Assembly: GCA_963753345.1 (NCBI GenBank)
Contig: CAVWBU010000010.1
Location: 1-15,693 of the forward strand
Length of the DNA stretch: 15,693 bases
From: an uncultured Fibrobacterota bacterium
GTDB taxonomy: Bacteria; Fibrobacterota; Chitinivibrionia; Chitinivibrionales; FEN-1185
Reading direction: 5' to 3'
In this document: piece by piece, positions 1,668 to 15,693 of the stretch
Position numbering within the stretch: position 1 is the first letter of the stretch
Layout: each line of letters begins with the position of its first letter
Made by a program: the position numbers and the translations under genes
The notes under the pieces: generated by a model
Seen by the model: the letters and a program-made list of their open reading frames with translations, nothing else
The model's database searches: none
What the model was told of the DNA's origin: nothing

Positions 1668-1831
1668 TGGGCGCTCCCCCTTGTAGAGCCACACGGCTGT
1701 CCGGCTCTACAAGGGGTCGGTCTCCCTTCGGGCTCGGCTATTCGCCTCGTTGCCGGACCGCTCTAGTGGCCTCCGGCGAGGGGTCGGCCGGCAATTCGCT
1801 CTGGCTCACCCTCCGGTCCACCTAACGCGGC
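1668..1831 (+). repeat. Dispersed structured repeat, module A, copy 1
   Basis: Starts TGGGCG; shares GGGCTCGGC..GCCTCGTTG..GGCAAT..CACCCTCCGGTCCACCTA with the copies at 5241 and 9100 and the 3' part with the minus-strand copy at 15644. Confidence 0.9.
1677..1716. repeat. GTAG-type REP-like palindrome nested in module A
   Basis: CCCCTTGTAGAGCC-N12-GGCTCTACAAGGGG, 14-bp inverted arms. Confidence 0.7.
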
Positions 1832-3822: not shown

Positions 3823-5206
3823 TCATCGCTGAAAGAATTTCTTCACCTCGTCGAACACGTTGTGGACCGCCCGGTCGGTGATGGTCCTGTCGATGTCGAT
3901 GGCCGGGTTTGCAAGCGTTCCGTGCACCGTACACGAAAAAGATTTCTTCCCGTCGGACTCGTCATCGAGCGACTTGGCTATCACGGGGTGGAGCTCTTTT
4001 ACGAGGTCGGACGCAATGATGCCCTTCATTTTTTCCGAGAACCGGCCGTCGAACCCCACCCAGCCATCGGCGCGCGCTTCGAGCGGATAACCGTCGCCGG
4101 AAATGTCCGGCGTGAATATCCTGCCGCCGCGGATGTCCAGACTTGTGCCGAGCTTTTTGAACGTGATGTTCCGTAGCTGCGGCACGGCGACATACACAAT
4201 GATGCCGCTCTGCAGCGGCAGGTCGCGCACCGAAACGTCGGTCATGCGGAAAAAACCCGAGCCCCGCATCGAATCGGCCGCAAGCGCGCTGCGCGCGAGC
4301 TCGATCTCGCCGTCCACGCGGCCGTCGCATTGCCCACGGCGGATCGCGCATGCCGCGTACAGTTTGGAAAGGTTGACATGAGATAATTCCAGCTTGAACC
4401 GCTCCAGCGTGCCTGCGCCGACGTCGGCCGCGCCCGAAGCGGCCACGGTCCCGCCGCAAAAATCACCCCTGCATCGATCAAGCGTCACCGCGCCATCCGA
4501 CACCCTCGCCGATGCGCGCACACCGGTGATGTTCCACATGCCGTTAAGGGTGAGCGTGTCCGCCGAAAGCCTGCCCGAAAGCGCAAGCTCCTTCCGGTAG
4601 CTCACGCTCATGTGAACATCGATTCCTTTTCCGTGCAGAAGTTTGTCGCCCTTCTGCGCCAGAGAAACTTCCGCATCATCGAGAGAAATGTTCTGCACCG
4701 CGACCGAAAAGGGAATTTCGGACAGCGCCGAGCGAAGGTCTTGGTTGGAAAACGGCTGCACCGGCCGCGTCTGTGCAGGCAAGGACGGCGGAAGGGTCAC
4801 CGCGATTTGCGGCCGCTCGACGACAAAGTCCTTGATCACCACAAACCTGAACAGAAGCGGCAGCAGCCGGTATGCAAGGCGGATTCGCGGGATTTTTGCG
4901 GAGAACGTTCACCGGCGCGTCCTTCCCGGCGACATCCATGCCGTCTATGGAAAATCCGAACCACGGCCTCAGCGAAACTTTCTGCACCGAGCAGGTGGAA
5001 ACGCCGGCCTTCACAAAAGCGCGTTCTGCGCTGCGCCGAAGGTTGTCGCACGAAAAAGGAACAAACCCCGCCGCAATGACGACAAACAACGGTATGCCGA
5101 GCCATACCAGAAGCTTTTTGACGAGATTCCTATGGCGCGAAAGGAATATCTCGACGGTACGTTTGTAGAATCCGTCAAGGTGTCTGGGGCGGGTGAAGAG
5201 ATTCAT
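3823..5206 (-). CDS. AsmA-like membrane-anchored protein; frameshifted at ~4903-4905
   Basis: N-terminal TM segment (KKLLVWLGIPLFVVIAAGF). Removing one base joins VNV to SAKIPRIRLAYRLLPLLFRFVVIKDFVVERPQI, a typical AsmA N-terminal pattern; beta-rich C-terminus ending VHGTLANPAI. Confidence 0.7.
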
Positions 5207-5240: not shown

Positions 5241-5654
5241 TGGGCGTTCCCCCATGTAGAGCCGCACGGCCGTGCGGTTCTACATGGGGTCGGTCTCCCT
5301 GCGGGCTCGGCCTTCGGCCTCGTTGTCGCCTGCCACGATGGCCCTTCGGGCCGTGGTCAGGCGGCAATGCGCTCCGGCGCACCCTCCGGTCCACCTAGCG
5401 CGCGGCATAGGAAATCTATTCTGTCAATATATTTATCTTGCGCCAATCAGAATCCTAAGAAAAAAAAGTCAACGCGTCTTTTTTAAACTTTTCATCTATT
5501 CAACCTCTTCCTTGCCACAACTCTCCTCGGGTGCCCCCACACAGGGGCTAGATTCTTGCAACCACACCATCAAGGGGTGCACCCAGGAGGGGGTAGCGCA
5601 GGACACCGCAGGCCGAAGGCCGAGGAGGCCGTAGCGAGGGGGATACTTCCCCCT
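5241..5654 (+). repeat. Complete composite repeat (module A 5241-5406, spacer, module B 5526-5654), copy 2
   Basis: Colinear with 9100-9478 and with the reverse complement of 15383-15693; invariant blocks CACCCTCCGGTCCACCTA (5380-5397) and GGGGTGCACCCAGGAGGGGGT (5574-5594). Confidence 0.92.
5250..5289. repeat. GTAG-type REP-like palindrome nested in module A
   Basis: CCCCATGTAGAGCCGCACGG|CCGTGCGGTTCTACATGGGG, 40-nt palindrome with one mismatch. Confidence 0.75.
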
Positions 5655-5777
5655 ATAGATGCTCCTTTATCTCGTGCAAAGTCCTTGCGTACATACTCAT
5701 TCTTAAGTAATGTATTTTTATTGACCGGAAGTTCATGACTCTCATCAAAAATAGTTTTCGCTCAGCCAGGTCTTTGT

Positions 5778-7190
5778 ATGGCATCGACGCCACCCAAAAA
5801 GAACGTCCTCTTTGTCTCACTCAACGCGCTGTCGAAAACCGCGGACGCCGACGAGGGCGCGCTGGCGGGGTTCCGCGTGATCGAGGCGCGCTCCCCGGCG
5901 CAGGCGCTGTCGATGCTGGAGCATGAGAAGATCGACATCGTGTTTCTTGACATAGAGGGAATGCCGGCCCAGGAAATGGACCTCGCCCATTACCTCAAGA
6001 CGCGGTCGCCGCATTCCGAGATCGTGGTGCTTGCCACCATCAACGAGCTCGACGCCGCGGCAAAGGCCCTGCGCAACGGCGCGTCGTTCTACCTCATGAA
6101 GCCCGTTCGGCCCGCCGACATGAAGGCCGCGGCCGACAAGCTTTCGGCAAAGGTCGACAACCAGGAGGAGTACCGCGAGCTCGAACAGCGCCTGCTCACC
6201 GACCTCATGTCGGGCAGCCCCGCCATGCAGAAGATCCTGCGTCTGGCCATGAAGATCGCTCCTACGTCGTCAACCGTGCTCATCTGCGGGGAAAGCGGCA
6301 CGGGCAAGGAATTCTTCGCGCGGATCATCCACCACATGTCCCGCAGGACCGACGGCAAATTCGTAGCCGTCAACTGCGGCGCGATACCGGACACGCTGTT
6401 CGAGAGCGAGTTGTTCGGCCACGTAAGGGGCTCCTTTACCGGCGCGGACCGCGACCGCGTCGGCCTTGTCGAGGAGGCGCACCTGGGAACGCTTTTTCTC
6501 GACGAAGTCGCGGAACTGTCGCCGTCGGCGCAGGTGAAACTCCTCAGGTTCCTTCAGGAGCGAACGTTCAAGCGCATCGGCGAAAACACGCAGCGCGGCG
6601 TAAACGTCCGCATCATCGCGGCCTCAAACAAGGACCTGTCGTCCCTCGTGGCGGAAAAGAAATTCCGCGAAGACCTGTTCTACCGGATTAACGTTTTCTG
6701 CCTCAATCTGCCGCCGCTCCGCGACCGCAAGGAGACCATTCCCAATCTCATCAAGCTGTTCATGCACCGGAACAGCGAGCAGATCGAGAAGAATATCACC
6801 AGGATTTCGCCCGCAGCCGAGGCCCTGCTTGCCAATTACGACTATCCGGGCAACGTGCGCGAGCTGGAGAACATCATCGAGCACGCCATCGTTCTCTCGG
6901 AGAACGGCGAAATCACGGAGAAGGACCTGCCCGAATTCATGTTCAAAAACAGGCTGCTGCTCGAAGGCCCGCGCAGGCCGTTTTCCATGGCCGGCGGCGA
7001 CGCGGCGGGCATTATCACGCTCAAGGACCTGGAGCGCGATTACCTGCGGCAGGCCCTCGAAACCATGCGGCACAACTACTCAGAAACCGCAAAGAAGCTC
7101 GGCATCTCGAGGTCGACCCTCTGGAGAAAAATAAGGGAATACAAGCTCGACAACCCGGCCTTGACAGAAGGAAGAAAGACCCCCGCATGA
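5778..7190 (+). CDS. Sigma54-dependent Fis-family transcriptional regulator (NtrC-like: receiver, AAA+, HTH)
   Basis: Walker A GESGTGKE, ESELFGHVRGSFTGA, Walker B LFLDE, FREDLFYRIN, YPGNVRELENIIE, C-terminal HTH TAKKLGISRSTLWRK. Confidence 0.95.
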   Translation: MASTPPKKNVLFVSLNALSKTADADEGALAGFRVIEARSPAQALSMLEHEKIDIVFLDIEGMPAQEMDLAHYLKTRSPHSEIVVLATINELDAAAKALRNGASFYLMKPVRPADMKAAADKLSAKVDNQEEYRELEQRLLTDLMSGSPAMQKILRLAMKIAPTSSTVLICGESGTGKEFFARIIHHMSRRTDGKFVAVNCGAIPDTLFESELFGHVRGSFTGADRDRVGLVEEAHLGTLFLDEVAELSPSAQVKLLRFLQERTFKRIGENTQRGVNVRIIAASNKDLSSLVAEKKFREDLFYRINVFCLNLPPLRDRKETIPNLIKLFMHRNSEQIEKNITRISPAAEALLANYDYPGNVRELENIIEHAIVLSENGEITEKDLPEFMFKNRLLLEGPRRPFSMAGGDAAGIITLKDLERDYLRQALETMRHNYSETAKKLGISRSTLWRKIREYKLDNPALTEGRKTPA

Positions 7191-7609
7191 AACCGGCCGA
7201 GAGCCATCTCACCGTCCGCGTGTACTACGAAGACACCGATTGCGGTAACGTGGTGTACTACGCCAACTACCTGCGGTACATGGAGCGCGGCAGGACCGAG
7301 CTTCTGCGGAGCATGGGCTTCGAACTCGACGACCTTCACAAACAGGACACGCAGTTTGTTGTCGCCGAGGCGAACGTGAAATACCACAGCTCCGCGCGGT
7401 ACAACGACGTGCTGGACGTGGCCACCTCGATAGCGGAGCATTCCTCGGTGACCATCACCTTCCACTACGAAATCGCCGACCAGAAGGGCGTGCTCTGCGT
7501 GAGCGGAGACGTTAGAGCTGCGTGCGTGGACCACCACGGAAAAGTGAAGCGGATTCCAAAGGCCGTTATTGACAAACTCATTCAGCACGAGGGCAAGGCA
7601 ATCTCATGA
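7187..7609 (+). CDS. ybgC: YbgC/FadM-family acyl-CoA thioesterase
   Basis: VRVYYEDTDCGNVVYYANYLRYMERGRTE hot-dog-fold signature; ATGA overlap with the upstream gene. Confidence 0.85.
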   Translation: MKPAESHLTVRVYYEDTDCGNVVYYANYLRYMERGRTELLRSMGFELDDLHKQDTQFVVAEANVKYHSSARYNDVLDVATSIAEHSSVTITFHYEIADQKGVLCVSGDVRAACVDHHGKVKRIPKAVIDKLIQHEGKAIS

Positions 7610-8103
7610 CAAAACAGAACCGACGAACTGCTGCGCGCGGCGGCAGGACTCCCGATGCTGCCCCGAGACAGGAAAAGAGAGCATGCGGCGAATGCACTGC
7701 GTGCTGCGAAGGACATTTGGCAGGCCAGGTGTACGGCCATCCTTTTTACCTGGGCCGGCCGTGCCACTATATGAAACCCGGCGGCTGCTCAATTTATCGG
7801 GACCGCCCAATGGAGCCATGCGTGAATTTCAATTGCGTCTGGCTGGCGGAAGATATCCTTCCCGCGTGGTTCAGGCCCGACCAATCAAACGTGATCGTCG
7901 CACGATGCGCGTGGGGGCCTGATAAGGATATGTCCTATCTGAAAGTGACAGAGAGAGGAACAAAGATCGATGCTGTCGTGCTGAACTTCCTTTACATGTA
8001 CCATGTACAGACGGGAATACCCATTTCCGTTCAGGTTGACAGGGGCTGGAGCCACTATGGTCCGCGCGAGTTTGTGGAGGAAATGCTGAGAAATGCGGTG
8101 TGA
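7606..8103 (+). CDS. Cys-cluster protein (CxxCxxCC, YkgJ-like putative Zn/Fe-S binding)
   Basis: RACGECTACCEG..PCHY..GCSIYRDRP..CVNFNCVWL; ATGA overlap with the thioesterase gene. Confidence 0.75.
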   Translation: MTKQNRRTAARGGRTPDAAPRQEKRACGECTACCEGHLAGQVYGHPFYLGRPCHYMKPGGCSIYRDRPMEPCVNFNCVWLAEDILPAWFRPDQSNVIVARCAWGPDKDMSYLKVTERGTKIDAVVLNFLYMYHVQTGIPISVQVDRGWSHYGPREFVEEMLRNAV

Positions 8104-8128
8104 TGACTGACTCTCCACAATATCGACT

Positions 8129-8617
8129 CTATTTTTGCAGACGCACCTCCATTGTATCCCTCGGCTTATCCACTCTGATACTTATCTCCTCAAACCTCGG
8201 CGCACGCAGGCTCACGCGGAACGGCCGTGAAAACGCCATGGGCTCGGTGGGATAGCCGAACAGGTTCGCGTCGAGCGTTCCGTTCGAATTGACATCGTGA
8301 TACACCACGAACGCGTACTCGCCCGGCGCGAGTACGAGCGGCACGAACGCTGCGGACTGGACGCGCGCGCCGTCGCACGCGACGCGCTTGCACACTACGA
8401 AGGAATCGTCCTTCATGTAGTGCGAATCGTTTTTGTAAACCGTCAAATCGATCACGCCGCCGGGTTGCGTCATGCCCGTCACCCGGACAACGAGCGTGTC
8501 TTGCGCTGCCGGCGCGCGTGCCGCAAGAAACAGGACGCCGAGGCAGATCGTTGCAAAATGTTTCATCGTGAGTGCGGATACGGTGCGGACAAAAAAGTTT
8601 GGACGCAGGGCAATCAT
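8129..8617 (-). CDS. DUF2141-family exported protein
   Basis: [33 protein letters not shown] pattern; signal peptide from the alternative ATG at 8566 ([20 protein letters not shown]). Confidence 0.85.
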
Positions 8618-9072
8618 CCGCGCACGTCCTTGGGCAGGCCCGGCATGGCGGCGGCCTCCACGGCAAGCCGGTCGCAGCGCTCGTTCTGGGGATGGCCGGC
8701 ATGGCCGTTCACCCAGGTGAACGCCACCTCATGCTTTGCGCACAAGTCAAGCAGCCGCCGCCACAGGTCGGGGTTGAGCGCGGCCTCTCTCCTGTTGCGC
8801 TTCCATCCGTTGGCGCGCCACTTTGCGGCCCAGCCGTTTCTCATTGCGTCAACAACATACTTTGAATCGGAGACCACGGTCACCCTGCACTGTTCCTTGA
8901 GGGACGAAAGCCCGGCAATGACGGCCATGAGTTCCATGCGGTTATTGGTGGTGTCGGCAAAACCCGCCGACAGTTCCTTTTCGCGGCCGTTGTAGGAGAG
9001 AATAGCGCCCCACCCGCCGGGGCCCGGATTGCCCGAGCATGCGCCGTCGGTGTAGAGAGTGATGTGCTTCAT
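8614..9072 (-). CDS. rnhA: Ribonuclease HI
   Basis: [55 protein letters not shown]. Confidence 0.98.
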
Positions 9073-9099
9073 GATAGTAATTGTAAAGAGAAAAGGAGA

Positions 9100-9478
9100 T
9101 GGGCGTTTCCCTCGCTACGCTCGGGCCGGTCTTCCTTCGGGCTCGGCCATTCGGCCTCGTTGCCGCCTGTCCCTACCGCCTTCGGCGAGGGATCAGGCGG
9201 CAATTCGCTCCAGCTCACCCTCCGGTCCACCTAACGCGCGGCAGCGGGAATCTATTCTGTCAACTTCTCTTTTTTTGCGCCACTCGGCATCCGCTTGAAA
9301 TCTACTGTCAACTTGTTTACGTCTTTTCTTCTCAACCTCTCAACTTCTCAACTTTTCAACGACTCTTCTCGGGTGCCCCCACACAGGTGCTTGATTCTTG
9401 CAACAGCTCCCTCTCGGGGTGCACCCAGGAGGGGGTGACGGAGGACCGTAGGGCCGTAGGCAGGGGGATACATCCCCC
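9100..9478 (+). repeat. Complete composite repeat (module A 9100-9242, spacer, module B 9368-9478), copy 3
   Basis: Colinear with 5241-5654; invariant blocks at 9216-9233 and 9416-9436; lacks the GTAG palindrome. Confidence 0.92.
9329..9360 (+). repeat. Four tandem copies of the 8-mer YTYTCAAC in the repeat spacer
   Basis: TTCTCAAC CTCTCAAC TTCTCAAC TTTTCAAC. Confidence 0.85.
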
Positions 9479-11662: not shown

Positions 11663-11845
11663 ACGGTTCTTTCCTTGTTGGATTGAAATCGCGTCACCGC
11701 CGGACATGGTCCGGCGTTGCCCTTAAAATATGTTGATCGCGTTTTCCCAGGGTAATTCAGATTTTTATTATATTAGACGAAGGTTTTTCTGCCTTATATT
11801 ACGATCATGCAAAAAAAGAATTTTGCCCAAAAAGAAAGGAATTCC

Positions 11846-12491
11846 ATGAAACGCAACGGTTTGCTCGCGTTGTTCCTCCTTGCTGTTTCCGCAGCGCTTT
11901 TTCCACCACGGGCCGAAAACCTGCTCTCGCTCAAAATCGGGACAACGTGGCCCCAGGCGCTGCTTAATACGGGAATCCCTTCGGGAGACGCGGAGCTGCA
12001 ATACGGCATCATTGTCGACAGGAAGATAGCGTTCGGCGTTGCAGGAGATTTTCTCTGGAACACTCGATCGAAGGACGTCCAGGATGATTCTTCGGGAAAA
12101 TGGCATGTCCTCCACGCTGATAAAAGCTTTCATGTTCCCTGTTTTGGGCTTTGTCATGATCGATCCTGTTCCGAATTTAATCGTCCACCCATCGGCCCAG
12201 TTCCAGATTGGATATAATTCAATGTATTCGGTGACAACAGGATACGATACCACTGGTACCGGAAACGATCCCACTAAAAGGAAAGAAGTTTCCCACAGTG
12301 ATTATTATTACGGCCTGATAATGAAGGCCATCGTCGATGCAAATTATAACCTTGGTGAAAGCAGCACGATTTTTCTCGGCGTTGAGTATCAATGGGCGGG
12401 GACAAAAACGCAGAGCAACACCGCCGGCCTTTTTGCCAAGCGCGACATGAGCGGCATCGGACTTAGGGCTGGGTTCAGGGTGGCGTTGTAA
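11846..12491 (+). CDS. Small outer-membrane beta-barrel-like protein; frameshifted at ~12128-12131
   Basis: AAGGA RBS and signal peptide MKRNGLLALFLLAVSA. Removing one T joins HADKSF to MFPVLGFVMIDP; C-terminal strand SGIGLRAGFRVAL. Confidence 0.7.
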
Positions 12492-12564: not shown

Positions 12565-12698
12565 GCGCCAGGCCGGACTGTAGTGGTCCCGCCAAAGCGG
12601 GATTGCCGGCCGACCCCGCCGACAGGCTTAGGGGCGGTCCGGCAACGAGGCGATAAGCCGAGCCCGAAAGGAGGGCCGGTGCCGAAGGCAGGCGCCCA
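12565..12698 (-). repeat. Dispersed structured repeat, module A' variant, copy 4
   Basis: Minus strand reads TGGGCGCC..TTCGGGCTCGGCTTATCGCCTCGTTGCCGGACCGC..GGGGTCGGCCGGCAAT, nearly identical to 1727-1795. Confidence 0.88.
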
Positions 12699-12773: not shown

Positions 12774-13211
12774 ATGCGCGTCGTCTTGCAGCGAGTAAAA
12801 AGAGCATCTGTGACCATCAATGGAACAATAACCGGTTCCATCAGCCACGGCCTCGTCATCCTCATCGGCATCCACAAGGACGACACGTCCGCAATGGCCG
12901 ATTTCCTCTCGGACAAATGCGCGGACCTCCGTATATTCGCCGACGACACGGGAAAAATGAACCGTTCCCTTGTCGACACCGGCGGCGGCGCGCTTGTTGT
13001 GTCGCAATTCACGCTGTACGGCGACTGCCGCAAGGGCCGCCGCCCCAGCTTTACGGATGCGGCAGGCCCGGAAAAGGGCAACGAGTTGTATGAATATTTT
13101 GTGGGCCGGATCAAGAACCGCGTACAGAACGTTGAAACGGGCTTATTCGGCGCCATGATGGATGTTGAGCTTGTCAACGACGGACCCGTGACGTTCGTGC
13201 TTGACGCATAG
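12774..13211 (+). CDS. dtd: D-aminoacyl-tRNA deacylase
   Basis: [44 protein letters not shown]. Confidence 0.98.
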
Positions 13212-15357
13212 AGAGGTCTTTGCCTTGACCGCGTGTCGCCGTGCCTTCCTGCTTTACGCGACTCTCGCGTGCGGAGCAGCCGTCGCCGGCGACGAATGGC
13301 CCATCCCCCGTCCGCTTTCCGGCTTCGGGGCAAACGGACCGCACGCCGTGGTGTGCGACAGCGTTTCCAGCCCCCAGTGGGCGGGAAAAAACGTTTATGT
13401 TTTTCATCCCGCAGACACCGCAAACAAGTATCCGCTTATTCTCTTCTGTCACGGGATCGGGGCAACGGCCCCTGTCCTGTACGGGCCGCTTATCACCAAC
13501 ATCGTGAGCCGCGGCCACGTTCTCGTGTTCTCTCCGTACAAAAGCATTGCCGCCGAGCGCGGGCAGCGGAGAAAATACGGCATCCTCATGGCAGGGTTTG
13601 AGGCCGCCGTGGAGAGGTTCCGCTCATGCATCGACACGACAAGAATCGGGATCGTGGGCCATTCTCACGGCGGCGGTGCCGTGCCTGCAATCGCATGGCG
13701 CAGCATCATCGAAAACCAGTGGGGAGAAAACGGCGTGTTTCTCTACATCATGGCGCCCTGGTATTCCCATTTCATCACCCAGGACGAACTCGAAGCGTTC
13801 CCTGCAAAGGCATACCTCATCATGGAAACGTTCCGCAGCGACAAGGTGAACGACCGGCGCATGGCGGTCGACCTGTTCGACAACATCGCCATCCCGGACA
13901 GCCAGAAGCTGTTCGTGGAACTGCAGAGCGATTCCATATCCGGATACCGGCTTATCGCGGACCATTTCGTGCCCGCAGGTCCGGCCGACAAGAACGGCGC
14001 GGAAAACGCCCTCGATTTCTACGGCGTTTATAAATTTGTTGATGCGATTGCGGACTATGTTTTCCGCGGCGACGCTTCGGCAAGGAGAATGGCCCTCGAC
14101 ACCGGCAACGCGGGGCAACGCTACATGGGGACCTGGCCCGATAAACGGCCCGTGCGCGAATGCATCGTCACCCGCTCGCCCGACACCTCGCGCACACCGC
14201 CGTATGTCAACGTGTGGGAAGATCCGCTCAATCCCCGCAGGGACGTGTCGCCCACGTTCTTGCCCGAAACGCCCAAAAACAAGTTTTATTATGCGCGAAA
14301 GACATCCAAGAATTACTGGGAATTTGAACGGGAAAAAATCCGGGAGCGCCGGGCCCATCGCAAAGCACCGAAAGACACTTCGCTGTGCGCCATTCCGCCC
14401 ATAGAAGAAGGGTTCGGCTCGGCAGGGCCCTGGCAGATGGCGGTCGACAGCCTTCCCCAGCCGCTCTGGCCCGGCCATTACGTCCATGTCTTTACCCCCC
14501 AGAACGCACCCGCGCCGCGGCCGCTCATTTTCTTCAGCCACGGCTACGCCTCGTCAAGCCCGCAGCAGTATCTGCCGCTTATCAACCACATGGTAAGCAA
14601 AGGATATGTGGTGGTGTTTTCTCCTTACCAAATGGCCGCCGGCGGCGACCCCAGGGAAGTCAAGAAATATGCCACCATAGAGGCGGGGTTCGAAACCGCG
14701 GTGGACAATTTCCGCGCCAGAATTGACACAACGAGAATCGGGTTCGCGGGTCACTCATTCGGCGCGGGCGCGATCCCCGCTCTTGCCTTGTGGGCGATCG
14801 TCGATAAGAACTGGGGAGCCAACGGCGTGTTCCTCCACCTTATGGCTCCCTGGTACAGCTACGAGATCGACAGGACGAAACTCCGGCTGTTTCCCTCCCG
14901 CGTCAAACTTCTTATGGAGGTCTTCGCGGAAGACCACGTCAACGACCACCGGATGGCGATTTCCCTATTCAACACGATAAACATTCCGGCCGCGGAAAAG
15001 AATTTCATCATGATCAACAGCGACTCGCTTGGGTCCTGCAGGCTTAAGGCGGATCACAATACGCCAAAAGGCCCGTTTGACCCGCGCGCCGAAGAGGACG
15101 CGCTCGATTACTACGGCGTGTACCGGTTGTTCGACGCTCTTGCGGCGTACACGTTCGACAATAACCTCAAGGCAAAGGCTTTTGTTTTCGGCCATGGGAG
15201 GGAAACTTGCTTCATGGGAACATGGCCCAACGGCAAGCCTGTGGCGCCGCTCTCCGCGGAACAGGCGCCGACGCCGGCGCAGCCCCAGGATTACTACGTG
15301 TTTCCCTGGGACTCGCGGCTGAATCCATTGAGGTCCGAGATAGCGGTTGATAAATAG
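13201..15357 (+). CDS. Secreted protein with two tandem alpha/beta-hydrolase domains (chlorophyllase/cutinase-like)
   Basis: Duplicated motifs [54 protein letters not shown](F/Y)YGVY. The start may be TTG 13225, which follows GAGG. Confidence 0.85.
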
Positions 15358-15382: not shown

Positions 15383-15693
15383 GGGGGAGGAATCCCCCTC
15401 GCTTCAGCCCGCGCTGCGCGCGGTCTTCCGCTACCCCCTCCTGGGTGCACCCCTAGAAGGAGCAGCTGCAAGAATCAAACACCTGCGTGGGGGCACCCCC
15501 GAGCGACAGCTGGCAGACCCTGAAGCAAGACGTTTAAACGTTCAGAAGTTGAGAAGCTCTAAAGGAATAAGGGCCAGACATTCTGAATAGAGACTTCGGT
15601 TGGCGCAAAGATGTAGATTGACTGAATAGACTTCCAATGCCGCGCGTTAGGTGGACCGGAGGGTGCGCTGGAGCGCATTGCCGGGCGACCCCG
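15383..15693 (-). repeat. Composite repeat copy 5 (module B 15383-15503, spacer, module A from ~15640, truncated by the window end)
   Basis: Reverse complements of the invariant blocks at 15433-15453 and 15648-15665, in the same order as copies 2 and 3. Confidence 0.9.

Follow-up and report, generated by a model that had tools for sequence, protein, structure and literature searches.

What is the element that recurs between ordinary genes of contig C10, and does it work as DNA or as RNA? The window, which is the whole 15,693-nucleotide (nt) stretch analysed here, belongs to a 55-contig, 4.52 Mb assembly (G000, 94.3% complete) of an uncultured Fibrobacterota/Chitinivibrionales bacterium from peat and sediment, and it contains six copies or part-copies of a composite intergenic element with the order module A, spacer, module B. 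Two of the six, the full composites at 5241-5653 and 9100-9478, lie within the region for which an earlier reading, made from the sequence only, had proposed folded single-stranded DNA. In the genome as a whole (nhmmer, two rounds, 4.5 Mb) there are 411 matches to module A (130-231 nt, median 156), 287 to module B (about 115-175 nt) and 192 to the spacer, a share on the order of 2% by rough arithmetic from match counts and lengths rather than by computation. The element is a high-copy modular intergenic repeat of this Chitinivibrionales bacterium; a literature search found no published description of such an A/B family, and Rfam covariance models gave no match at E values up to 1 on either strand of the window, the six copies included. 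The explanation preferred here, with a probability of roughly 0.4, is that the modules are the single-stranded DNA substrate of a putative recombination or transposition system.

Strand asymmetry of the two modules

Contigs C3, C39 and C43 with respect to C10, and C4 and C5 with respect to C16, are strain variants of the same loci (92-100% identical). The metagenome-assembled genome is a population mix, and some copy counts are therefore slightly inflated. Loop and energy tallies cover 331 distinct copies of A, 260 copies of B and 184 spacers. The strand of module A that bears TGGGCG is called plus and the opposite strand minus. GNA-loop hairpins of three or more Watson-Crick pairs occur 534 times on the minus strand but only 18 times on the plus strand, against 92.3 in dinucleotide shuffles, a strand bias far beyond chance and in the direction that the sequence-only reading had given. 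C-G pairs close 491 of the 534 (GAA 275, GCA 100, GGA 96, GTA 20). In the aligned structure, the minus strand has purines at 82.4% of its unpaired positions (A 866, G 1010, C 285, T 116), versus 58.6% for the whole module, and this strand is the more stable in 240/331 copies with RNA parameters and 266/331 with DNA parameters. Every conserved non-Watson-Crick feature of A is on the minus strand. Read on the plus strand in Watson-Crick-only folds, the single mismatches of A include 182 that are pyrimidine-pyrimidine (TC 51, CT 49, TT 48, CC 34) and only five A/G-containing purine-purine mismatches; a further 179 are G.G, equivalent to C.C on the minus strand.

Module B had been assigned to the opposite strand by its GNA triloops, an assignment upheld by energy and by mismatches: the plus strand is more stable in 208/260 copies (RNA parameters) or 222/260 (DNA parameters), and it bears the purine mismatches (AG 105) and hairpins of the form GGCC-GAA-GGCC-GAGGA-GGCC. 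The triloops themselves do not follow, with 92 GNA hairpins on plus (shuffles 49.9) and 134 on minus (shuffles 37.6), a count that speaks against a single-stranded DNA substrate as well. The arrangement of the modules is constant: B stands downstream of A on the same strand at 205 of the 411 A copies and never on the opposite strand, about half of the A modules have no B, and A-A neighbours within 400 nt are tail-to-tail in 29 cases and head-to-head in none. On the plus strand, a run rich in A lies ahead of TGGGCG and one rich in T beyond B; along each folded strand the T-rich run sets in about 5 nt past the closing helix P0 of A and about 9 nt past the terminal hairpin of B. Each folded strand, minus for A and plus for B, thus points outward from the spacer, as had been proposed, with a T-rich run about 5-10 nt beyond its end. 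In inverted orientation, the 3' part of B is related to the 5' part of A (73% complementary over 26 nt, window repeat I16), and therefore the two ends act like structured inverted ends; in A-A composites of the tail-to-tail kind, the inverted ends are full-length.

The fold of module A and its copies in the window

Mutual information among 259 distinct copies, together with pair counts in 60 aligned copies, shows that module A is a single closed eight-helix fold and not a series of small hairpins. Among the 60 aligned copies, 83.7% of cells in this structure are paired, versus 75.5% in shuffles (0/500 reach the observed value) and at most 48.3% with slid partners, and both sides have changed in 195 cells versus 69.5 in shuffles. 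The closing helix P0 is either GCGUU/AACGC or GCGCC/GGCGC and switches as a block, with UA in 38 and CG in 21 of the 60 copies at both variable pairs. P1 is a variable hairpin; Pc and Pb form a long helix broken by two all-purine 3x3 loops, and the junction beyond bears H5, H4 and H3. The low score of H4 (65%) is due to misalignment of subfamilies by MAFFT at that point. By plus-strand columns over the 259 copies, pair 15-104 is TA in 131, CG in 112, TG in 7 and CA in 6, and pair 19-100 is GC in 229 and AT in 25. The features in the window are as follows, the strand being that on which a module is predicted to fold, and copy 3 being given helix by helix.

1668-1829, minus: module A, copy 1 (nhmmer, profile positions 1-162), TGGGCG at 1668-1673
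1918-2126, plus: module A, copy 2, inverted, subfamily A2, CGCCCA at 2121-2126, closing helix GCGCC/GGCGC
5241-5410, minus: module A of composite copy 3 (sequence read against the family structure)
5244-5248 with 5397-5401, plus coordinates: copy 3, helix P0
5250-5289, plus coordinates: copy 3, P1 palindrome
5292-5305 with 5382-5395, plus coordinates: copy 3, Pc and Pb, whose pyrimidine loops are the purine loops GGA/GAG and GGA/GNA on minus
5306-5322, plus coordinates: copy 3, H3, C-GA-GGCC-GAA-GGCC-GA-G as read on minus
5323-5367, plus coordinates: copy 3, H4, GAA apex at 5345-5347
5368-5381, plus coordinates: copy 3, H5
5411-5519, no strand: copy 3 spacer, conserved motif GGAAATCTATTCTGTCAA-N10-TTGCGCCA adjoining A, G-poor tract ahead of B
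5520-5653, plus: module B of copy 3 (nhmmer and sequence)
5523-5527 with 5585-5589, plus: copy 3, B helix CTCCT with AGGAG
5529-5534 with 5579-5584, plus: copy 3, B helix GGGTGC with GCACCC
5611-5630, plus: copy 3, B element GGCC-GAA-GGCC-GAGGA-GGCC
5638-5653, plus: copy 3, B terminal hairpin GGGGGA-TACT-TCCCCC
9100-9244, minus: module A of composite copy 4, short P1 form at 9109-9125
9245-9361, no strand: copy 4 spacer, motif GAATCTATTCTGTCAA, recurring as GAAATCTACTGTCAA
9331-9364: tandem 8-nt TCAAC repeats at the end of the copy 4 spacer, ahead of module B
9362-9478, plus: module B of copy 4, terminal hairpin at 9463-9478
12565-12698, plus: module A, copy 5, inverted, CGCCCA at 12693-12698
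15383-15693, no strand: composite copy 6, inverted, cut by the contig end (nhmmer and repeat list)
15383-15501, window minus: copy 6, module B
15502-15636: copy 6, spacer
15637-15693, window plus: copy 6, module A

Copies 1 and 2 form a tail-to-tail pair, the first of them beginning 22 nt past the stop codon of a deacetylase gene (447-1646; Pfam); module A of copy 4 and the start codon of the RNase H gene (8614-9072, minus strand) are 28 nt apart. The motifs on which the sequence-only reading had relied were all located: CCC-GA-GC-GTA-GC-GA-GGG on the minus strand at 9109-9125, CCCGCAGGG at 5297-5305, CCCGAAGGG at 1724-1732, GA-GGCC-GAA-GGCC-GA at 5307-5321, CGCC-GAA-GGCG at 9177-9187 and, in an inverted copy, TGCC-GAA-GGCA at 12680-12690, as well as a stem that is GCGC/GCGC at 5369-5380 and 15663-15674 versus GAGC/GCGA at 1797-1808 and 9205-9216. 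The interpretation of CCC-GNA-GGG as a triloop hairpin did not survive: by covariation, both arms pair with a segment some 85 nt distant, and the supposed loop makes up one strand of the second 3x3 internal loop, which is GGA/GNA on the minus strand.

The six-pair helix H5 has four main forms genome-wide (CCGCGC/GCGCGG, TCCCGC/GCGGGA, TGCGC/GCGCA and TGAGC/GCGAA), the last with tandem G.A on the minus strand, equivalent to C.T/T.C on the plus strand. H3 and the short P1 share the pattern C-GA-(stem)-GNA-(stem)-GA-G; all of the 16 commonest H3 variants, covering 194/259 copies, show it. The long form of P1 (1983-2023, nested within the P1 hairpin of copy 2, and 5250-5289, with arms 5250-5269 and 5270-5289) is a near-perfect palindrome whose arms are 0-1 nt apart. 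In G033, a genome from another genus, this palindrome stands by itself with 29 matches; it may be a small palindromic repeat in its own right, nested inside module A. A further nested element is the 27-nt extra hairpin within H4 of an orthologous A copy (L001) in the sister genome G002 (C26, 11248-11391), which resembles an insert in some G000 copies; helices can therefore gain nested hairpins.

Working form, spacer and turnover

The loops and mismatches of module A follow the rules of stable DNA mini-hairpins: C-G-closed GNA loops, GNNA loops without a GNRA preference, and tandem G.A in C-GA-G. According to a 2026 review (PMC13037366), GCGNAGC and GCGNNAGC hairpins have extraordinary stability as DNA and are much weaker as RNA, and GNA loops that have a C-G closing pair and a sheared G.A work as folded single-stranded DNA at G4-type origins, RSF1010 ssiA and N4 promoters, which are single-stranded priming or promoter sites. 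On the minus strand of A, G..A-closed loops comprise 534 GNA, 98 GNNA and 106 GNNNA; GNRA accounts for 45 of the 98 GNNA loops, about the chance level, and UNCG tetraloop hairpins number five on minus and 23 on plus. As a substrate for recombination, the fold would form once about 170 nt of one strand were exposed, behind the replication fork or a transcribing polymerase, and would be recognised, once per end, by a putative recombinase or transposase that would copy or exchange modules between intergenic sites, by the logic of REP/REPIN elements and their RAYT transposases but on a far more elaborate substrate. The C(GNA)G loops, the longer G..A-closed loops, tandem G.A and strictly Watson-Crick stems would keep the fold competitive with re-annealing and with single-stranded DNA-binding protein, and termination, protection of 3' ends or any other effect on transcripts would then be secondary. 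Between nearest-neighbour copies, one-sided changes at paired sites are symmetric (G.T 101, A.C 119) and exceed compensated changes (105), which fits a fold that matters in copying and decays afterwards. DNA, as inferred in the sequence-only reading, is a plausible working form that fits the chemistry; an eight-helix junction is more RNA-like. The bolder proposition, that this is the first elaborate multi-helix single-stranded DNA fold in a cellular chromosome, with two substrates of the eight-helix class, one per strand, read by a putative recombinase specific for single-stranded DNA, is unlikely.

Several results weigh against the single-stranded DNA substrate, and some of them speak for an only slightly less probable alternative, in which the modules act as RNA and the composite, spread as a selfish repeat, terminates transcripts in both directions and protects their 3' ends or is some other RNA device. 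Among 13 public runs listed, none was an RNA run with this organism in it. Transcripts crossing the element would then end in the module on the far side and a U-rich run, A-minus leftward and B-plus rightward. Junctions of eight helices with long-range closing helices are typical of RNA, and we know of no precedent for such a fold as a chromosomal single-stranded DNA element; the covarying long-range helices and purine-rich unpaired positions of module A also suit RNA. The ends of the element lie close to stop codons (median 29 nt from the end of B to that of a convergent gene, 40-52 nt from that of a co-directional gene to A), although in the commonest orientation the stop codon adjoins B on its less stable strand. 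Composites in tandem gene contexts are oriented 72:31 so as to put A-minus in the transcript, whereas copies of A alone show no preference there (50 vs 46). A T-rich run lies beyond each outward end, and a simple terminator scan flagged two of the six outward ends in the window (1673-1689 and 12678-12696); the runs nevertheless begin some nucleotides past the last helix, at the distances given above, rather than at it. In one subfamily of B, a covarying pair includes G.U on the plus strand (GC 33, GU 17 of 50), but in module A only 21 of 2139 cells on the minus strand are G.U (about 1%). The preponderance of triloops over tetraloops, the indifference to GNRA and the near absence of UNCG are likewise awkward for RNA, as are the lack of any Rfam match and the lack of promoters in the spacers, and the absence of RVT_1 reverse transcriptase matches from the 94%-complete genome counts against an RNA copying route.

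Two comparisons that the sequence-only reading had called for did not tell DNA from RNA. Folding energies rank the strands alike with both parameter sets, and the program gives GAA and TTC triloops identical scores, with no bonus for GNA; this is a further point against the single-stranded DNA substrate. The per-strand tally of wobble pairs is uninformative, with 14 G.U and 14 A.C among 1380 cells of well-aligned A helices. Three other readings of the plus strand were rejected: G.T columns (21-98, 39-83, 49-72) as a wobble signal, which were junction or register differences between subfamilies; a C(UNCG)G hairpin, which has only 1-2 pairs before a mismatch versus 4-5 in the triloop register; and a peptide starting from ATGGGCG, for which the differences in helix length are not divisible by three.

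The rarity of wobble pairs on both strands would also suit folds that are by-products of a double-stranded repeat without functional strand preference, such as a miniature inverted-repeat transposable element (MITE) or a protein-binding cassette like BIME-1, in which the palindromes would serve protein dimers or cruciform extrusion. The resemblance of the ends to inverted repeats, the loopless palindrome that P1 can be and its independent occurrence in G033, and the conserved spacer motif GTCAA-N10-TTGCGCC (GTCAA within the first 30 nt in 149/184 spacers, GCGCC within the first 50 nt in 124/184) are all in keeping with a duplex. Neither duplex nor cruciform, however, would select the strand asymmetry (534 vs 18 GNA hairpins, 82% purine at unpaired positions, tandem G.A on one strand that is C.T/T.C on the other), a cruciform needs none of the covarying helices P0, Pb and Pc, and neither a target-site duplication of at least 8 nt nor a parent insertion sequence was found. 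This explanation is improbable.

The final 60 nt of the spacer, toward module B, are G-poor on the plus strand (12.5% G, 28% C), which on the RNA side could provide a loading site for Rho. Tandem TCAAC units precede B, at least two in 135/184 spacers, with 8 nt as the commonest spacing (214 intervals). The promoter pattern TTGAC-N16-18-TAnnnT occurs in one of the 184 spacers in each direction, whereas 967 host upstream regions have 47 in sense and 12 in antisense, and the spacer of copy 3 (5411-5519) has no sigma-70-type promoter pattern on either strand. Sigma-54 and Bacteroidetes-type promoter readings of the spacer motif were dropped by eye, the spacing being unfit. Paired priming signals had also been suggested; the modules, one per strand beside iteron-like 8-nt repeats, would then resemble the minus-strand origins of G4-type phages and the ssiA and ssiB of RSF1010, which lie on opposite strands. 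The outward-facing folds on opposite strands and the tandem TCAAC units agree with this proposal, as does the occurrence of C(GNA)G mini-hairpins at such sites (PMC13037366), but beyond the analogy it found no support: more than 400 chromosomal copies stand between ordinary genes, half of the A modules have no B, and Rep_trans and relaxase were not found in the genome. An 8-nt period is unfit for double-stranded iterons bound on one helix face, and fits a single-strand binder or slippage better. The orientation of copies of A alone shows no relation to GC skew (45:42 where positive, 24:16 where negative, p = 0.45), a point against both priming and the single-stranded DNA substrate; that of composites follows local skew (p = 0.007), but genes track skew too (r = 0.45) and draft contigs are a crude proxy. 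Priming signals are very improbable.

The search for an enzyme also counts against the single-stranded DNA substrate, and the earlier suggestion of substrates for an HUH protein found no support. The 94.3%-complete genome has no match to Y1_Tnp (the RAYT domain, PF01797), for which a control search was positive in 6/14 reference genomes, and none to Rep_trans, Relaxase or TnpB; RepB'-type primase was not among the searches. Its one IS91-type Y2 transposase (477 aa) lies about 5.7 kb from the nearest module between flanks unlike the modules, and relatives occur in 18/41 genomes of the order, many without the repeat, so a link was rejected. Clustering of the 3080 called proteins revealed no multi-copy transposase family, and the genes that lie between A and B modules spaced by 400-6000 nt look ordinary and vary widely in size, with no recurring transposase that would mark an autonomous parent. 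A guide RNA of the TnpB/IscB-like kind was rejected because TnpB gave no match and because the outward flank is a conserved T-rich run rather than a variable guide. The Y2 transposase gene shares an insertion sequence island (G000:C26:283227-286656) with a DDE transposase gene (515 aa), and six full-length or near full-length copies of it are present in G002.

Within the genus, the repeat occurs in four of the five other genomes (G001, G002, G004 and G005) besides G000, but was not found in G003, which is 99% complete, and most of the order is without it. Median nearest-neighbour identity is 92% for A and 86% for B. The site of copy 3 is empty in G002 and G004; that of copy 5 has an orthologous copy in G002, is empty in G004 and G005, and is reduced to an intergenic region of only 32 nt in strain contig C3. 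These empty sites in sister species gave no element boundaries, as intergenic flanks are unalignable at 70-80% gene identity. Between G000 and G002, the A core of copy 5 is about 88% identical by eye (76% over the whole alignment including flanks) while the genes are 70-75% identical; this better conservation of the copy than of its flanking genes points to selection in place, which favours RNA over a mobile DNA substrate. Strain-variant contigs with flanks 92-100% identical have different module sets at the same site, one breakpoint between C16 and C4 falling exactly at the 5' end of B. Whole intergenic cassettes seem to have been replaced there, rather than elements cleanly inserted. No clean pair of filled and empty sites was found among the strain-variant contigs, and contigs of four DNA runs, compared with the window, break at every repeat, with no joint that skips exactly one element. 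Target-site duplications of at least 8 nt do not exceed the control (for example, 34/199 composites vs 154/985 mismatched flank pairs), shorter ones being outside the reach of a flank test on elements whose exact ends are undefined. The lack of a clean pair and of such duplications counts against the single-stranded DNA substrate; the turnover of sites between sister species and strains speaks for it.

Varying between sister species and even between strains, the repeat is a main source of gene-boundary variation in this peat lineage. If its modules do work as single-stranded DNA, the known functional structures of such DNA, so far simple hairpins (REP, IS608 ends, attC, ssi), would come to include junction folds hitherto seen only in RNA, and an undiscovered enzyme would be indicated; should a recombinase act on such multi-helix folds, it would copy or swap intergenic cassettes and reshape gene boundaries across the whole genus. 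If they work as RNA, they make up a structured RNA family of unusual size in which the common RNA loop motifs and wobble pairs are avoided, which would itself need explanation. Under either reading, the strand-asymmetric purine design offers a clear and testable handle.

Neighbouring genes and known systems

The genes that flank the copies in the window are ordinary by Pfam: polysaccharide deacetylase, radical SAM, sigma-54 activator, thioesterase, RNase H and D-Tyr-tRNA deacylase. Several gene regions appear disrupted. On the plus strand at 166-1646, a fragment of glycosyltransferase family 2 (166-390, 74 aa) is followed by the polysaccharide deacetylase; strain contigs C39 and C43 have a longer, 491-aa version of the deacetylase, and the fused gene of the window seems interrupted. 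On the minus strand at 3823-5206, the overlapping frames 3823-4842 and 4676-5206 look like one frameshifted gene, and at position 4907 one base is missing in contigs of three of the four runs (depth 11.7 of 11.7 in X1), which may reflect an assembly error or a strain variant. The overlapping frames 11807-12217 and 12039-12491 (11807-12491, plus strand), without Pfam matches, also look like a frameshifted gene, and the region is one alignable stretch in G002, G004 and G005. A 718-aa hydrolase with chlorophyllase/PETase-like matches (13201-15357, plus strand) is an internal duplication made up of two similar halves, visible as a direct repeat (13485-13543 and 14574-14632, 73% identical). Elsewhere in G000, 14 loci encode a family of paralogues, each about 916-957 aa long; C18 has three of these genes in tandem (e.g. 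C18:62076-71316).

Among known systems, an intrinsic terminator has a U run within 0-2 nt of its G+C-rich hairpin; T-rich runs are present on the outward strands here, starting about 5 and 9 nt downstream, and two of the six outward ends in the window were flagged. A MITE has terminal inverted repeats, a target-site duplication and a parent element; here the ends are 73% complementary over 26 nt, the true termini being undefined, and neither a duplication of at least 8 nt nor a parent element was found. The mini-hairpins of G4-type origins, RSF1010 ssiA and N4 early promoters resemble module A in having C-G-closed GNA loops, which there act in folded single-stranded DNA (PMC13037366); they differ in being single sites of small replicons with a dedicated primase or polymerase, not hundreds of chromosomal copies for which no such enzyme was identified. 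The ends of IS200/IS605 elements are likewise strand-specific hairpins recognised in place of inverted repeats, but both lie on the same (top) strand, insertion is into the lagging-strand template, and a Y1 transposase is involved, for which there is no match here, where the folds are on opposite strands. Integron attC sites also keep their structure while sequence varies, work as one folded strand and reach up to hundreds of copies; they form one-orientation cassette arrays beside an integrase gene, whereas the present modules are scattered singly, in both orientations, among housekeeping genes (an integron integrase was not searched for).

The pneumococcal BOX element (boxA-boxB-boxC) is similar in build, being modular, with a variable middle of short tandem units and predicted stable single-strand folds, scattered between genes and without a known transposase. 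It has no sequence relation to the present repeat, its modules are of about 45-60 nt, and to our knowledge neither the opposite-strand design nor the GNA and G.A chemistry is part of its description. REP units, with their BIME, REPIN and RAYT relatives (the anatomy of BIME-1 and REPIN being taken as general background), differ in being hairpins of 20-40 nt rather than folds of 130-230 nt and eight helices, in that the two ends here are unlike modules, and in their RAYT transposase, Y1_Tnp not having been found in this genome. They are alike in other respects: both are high-copy intergenic units that fold as single strands, arranged as inverted units around a motif-bearing spacer (an IHF site in BIME-1), placed near the 3' ends of genes and kept in structure by compensatory changes.

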